A DNA stretch of 64,000 nucleotides. Origin: Escherichia coli (GTDB lineage Bacteria; Pseudomonadota; Gammaproteobacteria; Enterobacterales; Enterobacteriaceae). Location: the NCBI RefSeq assembly GCF_003334335.1, contig NZ_QOWQ01000015.1; one strand, written 5' to 3'. Position numbers and translations under genes: made by a program. The notes below the pieces were generated by a model, which was not told the origin of the DNA, searched no databases, and worked only from the letters and a program-made list of their open reading frames with translations. Below, piece after piece: positions 32,868-32,962 of the stretch; the first letter of the stretch is position 1; the number at the start of each line of letters is the position of its first letter.

Positions 32868-32962
32868 TGATGTCACTTTTTGTCATTTATGACATGCTTT
32901 GCTTGTCTGTTTTTGATCGTATTTGTAATTTATCGTCAAAAAATTGACAGCCGTCACTTTTT
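32868..32962. promoter_or_regulatory. Divergent yihU / yihV promoter region with palindrome and direct repeats (candidate CsqR/YihW operator sites)
   Basis: Perfect palindrome TGTCATTTATGACA at 32881-32894; direct repeat GTCACTTTTT at 32872-32881 and 32953-32962; TGACA half-sites; operator assignment is inference. Confidence 0.45.

Follow-up and report, generated by a model that had tools for sequence, protein, structure and literature searches.

The divergent yihU/yihV spacer of Escherichia coli, a published target of the DeoR-family repressor CsqR (YihW), contains a set of boxes in which a GTCA core is followed by a run of T residues. With modest confidence, we favor a model in which these asymmetric boxes nucleate a cooperative CsqR oligomer that is released by sulfoquinovose. 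The predicted recognition element would be asymmetric, with a GTCA core and a 3' T-run (approximately GTCWNTTTWT), and would not be the 14-bp inverted repeat that a sequence-only reading of this DNA had put forward as a candidate operator. Few organosulfur compounds in the biosphere are as abundant as sulfoquinovose, and the yih cluster serves as a model sulfoglycolysis pathway. A motif-level description contributes a modest refinement of this characterized system, not a new kind of element; once tested, the box model would allow regulon prediction in other sulfo-EMP clusters and would help explain why the short cassette of Nissle-type and ExPEC strains is unresponsive to sulfoquinovose.

The yihU/yihV spacer as a CsqR target

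The window that we analyzed, a stretch of 64,000 nucleotides of E. coli DNA, contains the yih (sulfo-EMP) locus. Many E. coli chromosomes match this region of the window at 100% identity, and K-12 MG1655 matches it at 99.9%. The annotation starts yihU (sulfolactaldehyde reductase) at 32848 on the minus strand and yihV (sulfofructose kinase) at 33016 on the plus strand, which confirms the 167-bp divergent spacer described earlier and places it at 32849-33015. Within this spacer, a single base distinguishes the window from MG1655 (32869, which is G in the window and T in MG1655). The window thus derives from a non-K-12 E. coli and is identical to strains such as E2865. The repressor acting on the spacer sites is encoded by csqR (yihW; 33946-34731, plus strand), whose annotation agrees with its Pfam domains: an N-terminal HTH_DeoR domain (PF08220, 4.1e-23, residues 11-66) and a C-terminal DeoRC sensor domain (PF00455, 2.1e-49, residues 79-237), the combination that defines the DeoR family. 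Mechanical open reading frame calls begin upstream of the annotated starts for both yihV (ATG at 33010 vs the annotated 33016) and csqR (GTG at 33922 vs the annotated ATG at 33946), and a 2024 paper describes a shorter CsqR isoform that starts at Met25.

In K-12, this same locus has been studied as the operator region of CsqR (Shimada et al. 2019; Kaznadzey et al. 2018; Gao et al. 2021). According to the papers that cite Shimada et al. (2019, Microbiology 165:78), CsqR binds strongly to the yihU/yihV spacer, which is its main published target, as well as to the region upstream of csqR, as judged from gSELEX, EMSA, AFM, and reporter assays. The same citing papers state that (i) both CsqR-bound units are repressed by CsqR, (ii) large cooperative CsqR complexes are visible by AFM, and (iii) CsqR is released by sulfoquinovose (SQ), sulfoquinovosyl glycerol (SQGro), and sulforhamnose (SR). 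Relatives of CsqR act as tetramers or octamers, and deletion of yihW in Salmonella raises yihU expression by ∼100-fold. Transcription starts have been reported at -15, -25, -35, -62/63, and -82/-92 from the ATG for yihU, at -25/-27 for yihV, and at -27/-28 for yihW (Kaznadzey et al. 2018).

We mapped the published EMSA probes to 32749-33083 (yihU/yihV spacer) and 33699-34004 (csqR upstream region) of the window. The spacer lies wholly inside the former probe and is thus within DNA that CsqR binds in vitro and in vivo. Published binding, as relayed by the papers citing Shimada et al. (2019), and ChIP-exo mapping together uphold the proposal that the spacer is the CsqR operator region for both divergent units, and binding, repression, and sulfoquinovose release are already known at the level of the region. 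A base-level CsqR or CRP site was absent from the literature and supplements that we searched, in which Shimada et al. (2019) is represented by the papers citing it, and the words "motif" and "operator" do not occur in a 2025 paper on the system. Binding in this literature is resolved to a fragment or to a 41-bp peak, and the boxes are accordingly offered here as a base-level proposal, not as an established result.

The inverted repeat at 32881-32894

The element TGTCATTTATGACA (32881-32894) had been described as a perfect 14-bp palindrome. While its coordinates are right, it is not a perfect palindrome because its reverse complement is TGTCATAAATGACA; 6-bp arms, TGTCAT and ATGACA, flank a TT that is not self-complementary. 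In 5000 dinucleotide-preserving shuffles of the spacer, which provided our chance estimates, an inverted repeat of this type (6-bp or longer arms separated by 0-4 bp) occurred with P=0.31, and the element is therefore not beyond chance expectation.

To the spacer of the window we added 54 recovered orthologous divergent yihU/yihV spacers, giving 55 distinct sequences from Escherichia, Salmonella, Citrobacter, Klebsiella, Enterobacter, Lelliottia, Rahnella, Yersinia, Hafnia, Buttiauxella, Chimaeribacter, and other genera. The whole element is intact in 2 of the 55, and so is its right arm ATGACA, which is confined to E. coli and E. whittamii and is missing already from E. albertii. The core of the left arm, TGTCA at 32881, which forms a half-site 10 bp past the first of the boxes described below (box 1), is kept in 38/55. 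Inverted repeats with arms of at least 5 bp occur in the equivalent stretch of only 14/55 spacers, and these differ from one another. A comparison with the csqR promoter and between the EMSA probes gave no counterpart of the element upstream of csqR. The significant and conserved inverted repeat that marks a dyad-symmetric DeoR-type operator is thus not found here, and the right arm is a lineage-specific extra TGACA.

We consider it very unlikely that TGTCAT-TT-ATGACA is nonetheless a dyad operator for a CsqR dimer, with the flanking GTCACTTTTT repeats as auxiliary sites. The element does lie inside the bound spacer, and its arms hold an enriched TGTCA/TGACA pentamer; moreover, TGTCATTTATGACC is present in C. 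amalonaticus, and an everted ATGACA-N7-TGTCAT occurs in the distant spacer of Chimaeribacter. Set against these points are its chance-level symmetry, its rarity among the orthologs, and the lack of a similar dyad at the csqR promoter, as well as two observations detailed below: the element lies outside the in vivo ChIP-exo peak, and only 5 of its 14 bases are kept in the Nissle spacer, to which K-12 CsqR binds just as well, although the DNA-binding helix of CsqR is identical in the two alleles. The earlier designation of this element as the operator is therefore not sustained.

We also examined the element as a possible RNA hairpin in the yihU 5' leader, since transcripts from the upstream yihU starts would include it. 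The leader folded no better than its shuffles (z=-0.68, with 42/200 as good), the minimum-free-energy structure left the two arms unpaired with each other, and the element is not conserved. A hairpin is scarcely credible on these results, and we rejected it.

A repeat common to both CsqR-bound regions

The two copies of GTCACTTTTT reported alongside the inverted repeat are exact, at 32872-32881 (copy 1) and 32953-32962 (copy 2). The entire 64-kb window contains only three exact copies; the third, overlooked in the sequence-only reading, lies at 33897-33906 just upstream of csqR, and all three fall within the two CsqR-bound regions. Also overlooked were an inverted near-copy, GTCAATTTTT, at 32939-32948 on the minus strand and a degenerate direct copy, TGTCTGTTTTTG, at 32904-32915. 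The 12-mer TGTCNNTTTTTG has three exact matches in the window, beginning at 32871, 32904, and 33896, each in a CsqR-bound region and one of them under the ChIP-exo peak. In the shuffled spacers, exact direct repeats of 10 bp or more were marginally unusual (P=0.044), while GTCA/TGAC tetramers were clearly enriched, with 7 observed vs 1.67 expected (P=0.0004).

These copies define five candidate boxes. Box 1 (TGTCACTTTTTG; 32871-32882, plus strand) contains copy 1 and lies in the yihU leader, over minor yihU starts; its 13-mer TGTCACTTTTTGT is identical to the copy at the csqR promoter. Box 4 (TGTCTGTTTTTG, also given as GTCTGTTTTT; 32904-32915, plus strand) is degenerate and spans the yihU P4 start at 32910/11. 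The inverted box 5 (32938-32949, minus strand) contains the near-copy GTCAATTTTT, and box 2 (32952-32963, plus strand) contains copy 2 and lies over the yihV -35 region. Box 3 (TGTCACTTTTTGT; 33896-33908, plus strand) contains the third exact GTCACTTTTT, occupies the last yihV codons in the second published CsqR-bound region, and adjoins the csqR -10 element.

When the two bound probes were compared, their best local match was the 13-mer TGTCACTTTTTGT, which gave P=0.01 against the shuffled whole probe and was equaled in 0/400 shuffles of the promoter-proximal 100 bp. Both GTCACTTTTT and TGTCACTTTTTGT are thus elements that the two CsqR targets have in common. The words TGATC and TGAGC, which also occur both in the spacer and upstream of csqR, were dropped because their flanking bases do not align. 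Among the orthologs, GTCACTTTTT is the longest word common to the spacer and the 80 bp before csqR in 27/54 taxa, with sub-words of it in most others, although these are not independent events because the orthologs are related by descent. By the window count, the probe match, and the cross-taxa words, GTCACTTTTT is the best sequence candidate for an element common to both CsqR targets, which favors its earlier assignment as part of an operator, and it probably belongs to the true CsqR recognition motif.

The copies are conserved to different extents. At box 1, the core TGTCA at 32871 is present in 49/55 spacers and the T-run is variable, such that the exact 10-mer of copy 1 is found in 6/55. 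The exact 10-mer of copy 2 is present in 42/55, GTCAAAAAATTGACA is present in 41/55, and box 4 is identical in 39/55. The variable left part of the spacer has at least one TGTCA/TGACA in 54/55 sequences and two in 40/55, vs 0.09 expected.

Since a sigma-70 consensus scan gave no match in the spacer, we assigned promoter elements from the published transcription starts. The putative yihV -10 element, TAAAAT (32979-32984, plus strand), sits 5-7 bp before the major start published at -25/-27 and is kept in 52/55 spacers. The csqR -10 element, TATAAA (33908-33913, plus strand), overlaps the yihV stop codon TAA (33910-33912); the csqR promoter lies within the final part of yihV, of which box 3 fills the last five codons (L S L F V, followed by the stop). 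Third-codon positions are conserved at box 3 and vary freely further upstream, which indicates a constraint beyond coding at this site. Box 3 is kept in most orthologs and lost in Yersinia and Hafnia; its conservation is confounded by the yihV coding sequence and the csqR promoter. The distance from GTCACTTTTT to the -10 element differs between the two promoters, with the repeat ∼26 bp upstream of the element at yihV and immediately adjacent to it at csqR, and the boxes are therefore not a common promoter element.

The in vivo peak and the near-invariant block

In the ChIP-exo supplement of Gao et al. (2021), YihW has eight sites, of which one is dominant, with a signal-to-noise ratio (S/N) of 168 vs at most 13.7 elsewhere. 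We converted this YihW-8myc peak from NC_000913.2 4071641-4071681 to window positions 32895-32935, with an uncertainty of ∼2 bp, by anchoring the yihV ATG (NC_000913.3 4073739) at window 33016 and applying a version offset of +1977 from NC_000913.2 to NC_000913.3. The conversion is consistent with a transcription start that Kaznadzey et al. quote in NC_000913.2 coordinates, and the seven other sites, when converted in the same way, each adjoin their named gene.

The peak sits between the elements singled out earlier: it starts 1 base past the inverted repeat and stops 18 bases before copy 2. The inverted repeat (32881-32894), copy 1 (32872-32881), and copy 2 (32953-32962) therefore all lie outside it, subject to the mapping uncertainty of ∼2 bp, and the degenerate box 4 (32904-32915) is the only candidate box beneath it. 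The csqR promoter has no peak in the YihW ChIP-exo table, and the seven weak sites, which resemble generic highly expressed promoters, contain neither a GTCA/T-run box nor any box in common. These features of the ChIP-exo data weigh against the box model. The second-strongest signal (S/N 13.7), which likewise has no GTCA/T-run box, is just upstream of glpA (NC_000913.3 2352631-2352636), a target of the DeoR-family paralogue GlpR.

Beneath the peak lies a near-invariant block, TTTTTGATCGTATTTGTAATTTAT (32910-32933), unchanged in 42/55 spacers that range from Escherichia to Yersinia and Hafnia. As judged from the published start, the block holds the likely yihU P4 -10 element, TACGAT (32921 to 32916, minus strand).

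A second line of evidence on this block comes from a divergent short-cassette allele, ∼65% identical, which 1,327 of 5,426 complete E. coli genomes carry, Nissle 1917, UTI89, and CFT073 among them, and which in two cases is located on a plasmid. The Nissle spacer is ∼60% identical to that of the window and keeps 3/10 bases of copy 1, 5/14 of the inverted repeat, 7/10 of copy 2, and 27/30 of the stretch 32904-32933, in which box 4 survives as CGTCTGTTTTTG. This central block is the only part of the spacer that is kept in the short-cassette allele. According to a 2025 paper, K-12 CsqR binds its own spacer and that of Nissle equally well. The winged-helix region of CsqR (VSTQTVRRDIRKLSEQGL) is identical in the two alleles, and in almost all of 58 orthologs, so that the K-12 and Nissle proteins should have the same specificity. 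Equal binding in spite of such poor retention argues against the inverted repeat, and it likewise shows that in vitro binding does not require exact copies 1 and 2. The short-cassette spacer also has three TGACA pentamers, in an orientation opposite to that of the K-12 TGTCA pair, which suggests half-site turnover.

These observations give rise to the main rival to the box model. Because the Nissle spacer retains 27/30 bases of the block and only 3/10 and 7/10 of the copies, CsqR specificity could reside instead in the whole near-invariant stretch 32904-32933 (TGTCTGTTTTTGATCGTATTTGTAATTTAT). The exact GTCACTTTTT copies would then be conserved for other reasons, namely a CRP half-site and the -35 region for copy 2, and the coding sequence and promoter spacer for the csqR copy. 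The position of the ChIP-exo peak on the block, the retention of the block in an allele bound by K-12 CsqR, and its near-invariance among the orthologs are all consistent with this reading. However, the TGTCNNTTTTTG box is the one portion of the block with a counterpart in the bound region upstream of csqR, and the yihU promoter elements inside the block would also lead one to expect its invariance. Further, border calling by ChIP-exo on an oligomer spread across ∼90 bp may return only an inner pair of borders. We regard specificity in the whole block as fairly unlikely and retain the box model.

A CRP-like dyad over the yihV -35 region

The inverted box 5 and box 2 together form a 24-bp imperfect dyad, AAAAATTGAC-agcc-GTCACTTTTT (32939-32962), which overlaps the yihV -35 region. 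Its center, at 32950.5, is ∼40 bp from both the yihV start (32989-32991) and the yihU P4 start (32910/11). The half-sites are near-invariant, while the three bases between them (32950-32952, GCC) are kept in 27/55 spacers; a conserved pair of arms, a variable center, and a location near -41.5 are the position and the pattern of conservation expected of a class II CRP site. The core, ATTGA-CAGCCG-TCACT, matches TGTGA-N6-TCACA at 7/10 positions, which shuffled spacers equal or exceed with P=0.49. As this match is not significant alone, the CRP reading rests on position and conservation.

In this reading, copy 2 is part of a single cAMP-CRP site, AAAATTGAcagccgTCACTTTT, centered at 32950.5, that would activate both divergent promoters from approximately -40.5; we give it somewhat less than even weight, and it is compatible with CsqR binding. 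CRP binds a yihU/yihV spacer fragment in vitro, and CRP sites have been predicted in that fragment (Kaznadzey et al. 2018). A center equidistant from the two starts, half-sites that do not vary around a center that does, and the want of a good -35 element at either promoter, where no sigma-70 consensus was found, further speak for it. On the other side, the core has two other 7/10 matches in the spacer, the literature searched gives CRP binding at the level of the fragment and not of the base, and both copy 1 and the csqR-proximal copy are left unexplained. Either CRP or the yihV -35 region could account for the conservation of copy 2.

We also considered whether the repeats are boxes for CsgD (AgfD), the biofilm regulator that controls yih operons in Salmonella. 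The sequence AAAAGTGACAAAAA (33892-33905, minus strand), which overlaps the csqR-proximal GTCACTTTTT, matches the CsgD consensus, AAAAGNG-N2-AAAWW, exactly, as no other sequence in the 64-kb window does. The two spacer copies fail to match this consensus even with one mismatch, and our search found no CsgD binding data for the yih locus. As the CsgD reading fits the csqR-proximal copy only, it is highly improbable as an account of the repeats, and we set it aside.

A model for CsqR action and its relation to known DeoR-family systems

In the box model, which combines published steps (binding, cooperativity, and induction) with our proposed identity for the boxes, box 4 would lie over the yihU P4 start and -10 element, box 2 over the yihV -35 region, and box 3 against the csqR -10 element, which would give all three promoters a box on their core elements. 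Box 1 and the bare TGTCA 10 bp beyond it would be extras in the yihU leader. CsqR would nucleate on the boxes and oligomerize cooperatively across ∼90 bp, and the resulting oligomer would occlude RNA polymerase and probably compete with CRP at the 32939-32962 dyad. Binding of sulfoquinovose, sulfoquinovosyl glycerol, or sulforhamnose to the DeoRC domain would then release CsqR. This model departs from the earlier view that the spacer has the layout expected for a dimeric DeoR-type repressor: most of the conserved boxes are in direct orientation and lack dyad symmetry, and CsqR is reported, in the papers citing Shimada et al. (2019), to form large cooperative oligomers.

A more elaborate version can be drawn, in which CsqR reads asymmetric boxes, its single-target specificity arises from cooperative oligomerization, and the box 5/box 2 pair doubles as a CRP site midway between two class II promoters. 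We regard this combination as possible, if doubtful. If it were true, a single competition between repressor and activator would switch both yih operons.

Known members of the family offer partial parallels. The E. coli DeoR operators O1, O2, and OE are 16-bp palindromes, true dyads that are bound by an octamer with looping. CsqR resembles DeoR in its domains (HTH_DeoR and DeoRC), in having several sites over ∼100 bp or more, and in its oligomeric binding. It differs in that the conserved elements of the CsqR spacer are mostly asymmetric and in direct orientation, and the sole short dyad noted earlier is not conserved. GlpR, AgaR, and UlaR are DeoR-family tetramers that act on several repeated sites, often beside or overlapping CRP sites. 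Like their targets, the yih spacer has phased sites over the cores of divergent sugar-catabolic promoters, a repressor released by a sugar, and a nearby candidate CRP site. The sequence motifs are unrelated, and the weak YihW signal at glpA is not accompanied by a box.

Other yih transcription units

We carried out the comparison with the yihO and ompL upstream regions that had been suggested as a check on the operator assignment. It lent no support, and the junctions among ompL, yihO, yihP, and yihQ are merely 12-36 bp long. A search of the other yih units found no boxes in the yihR/yihQ or yihS/yihR spacers. The yihS/yihR spacer carries an element of another kind, a REP-like, G+C-rich palindromic sequence (29722-29775) that contains cccctcgcccctttggggagagggttagggagagggg.
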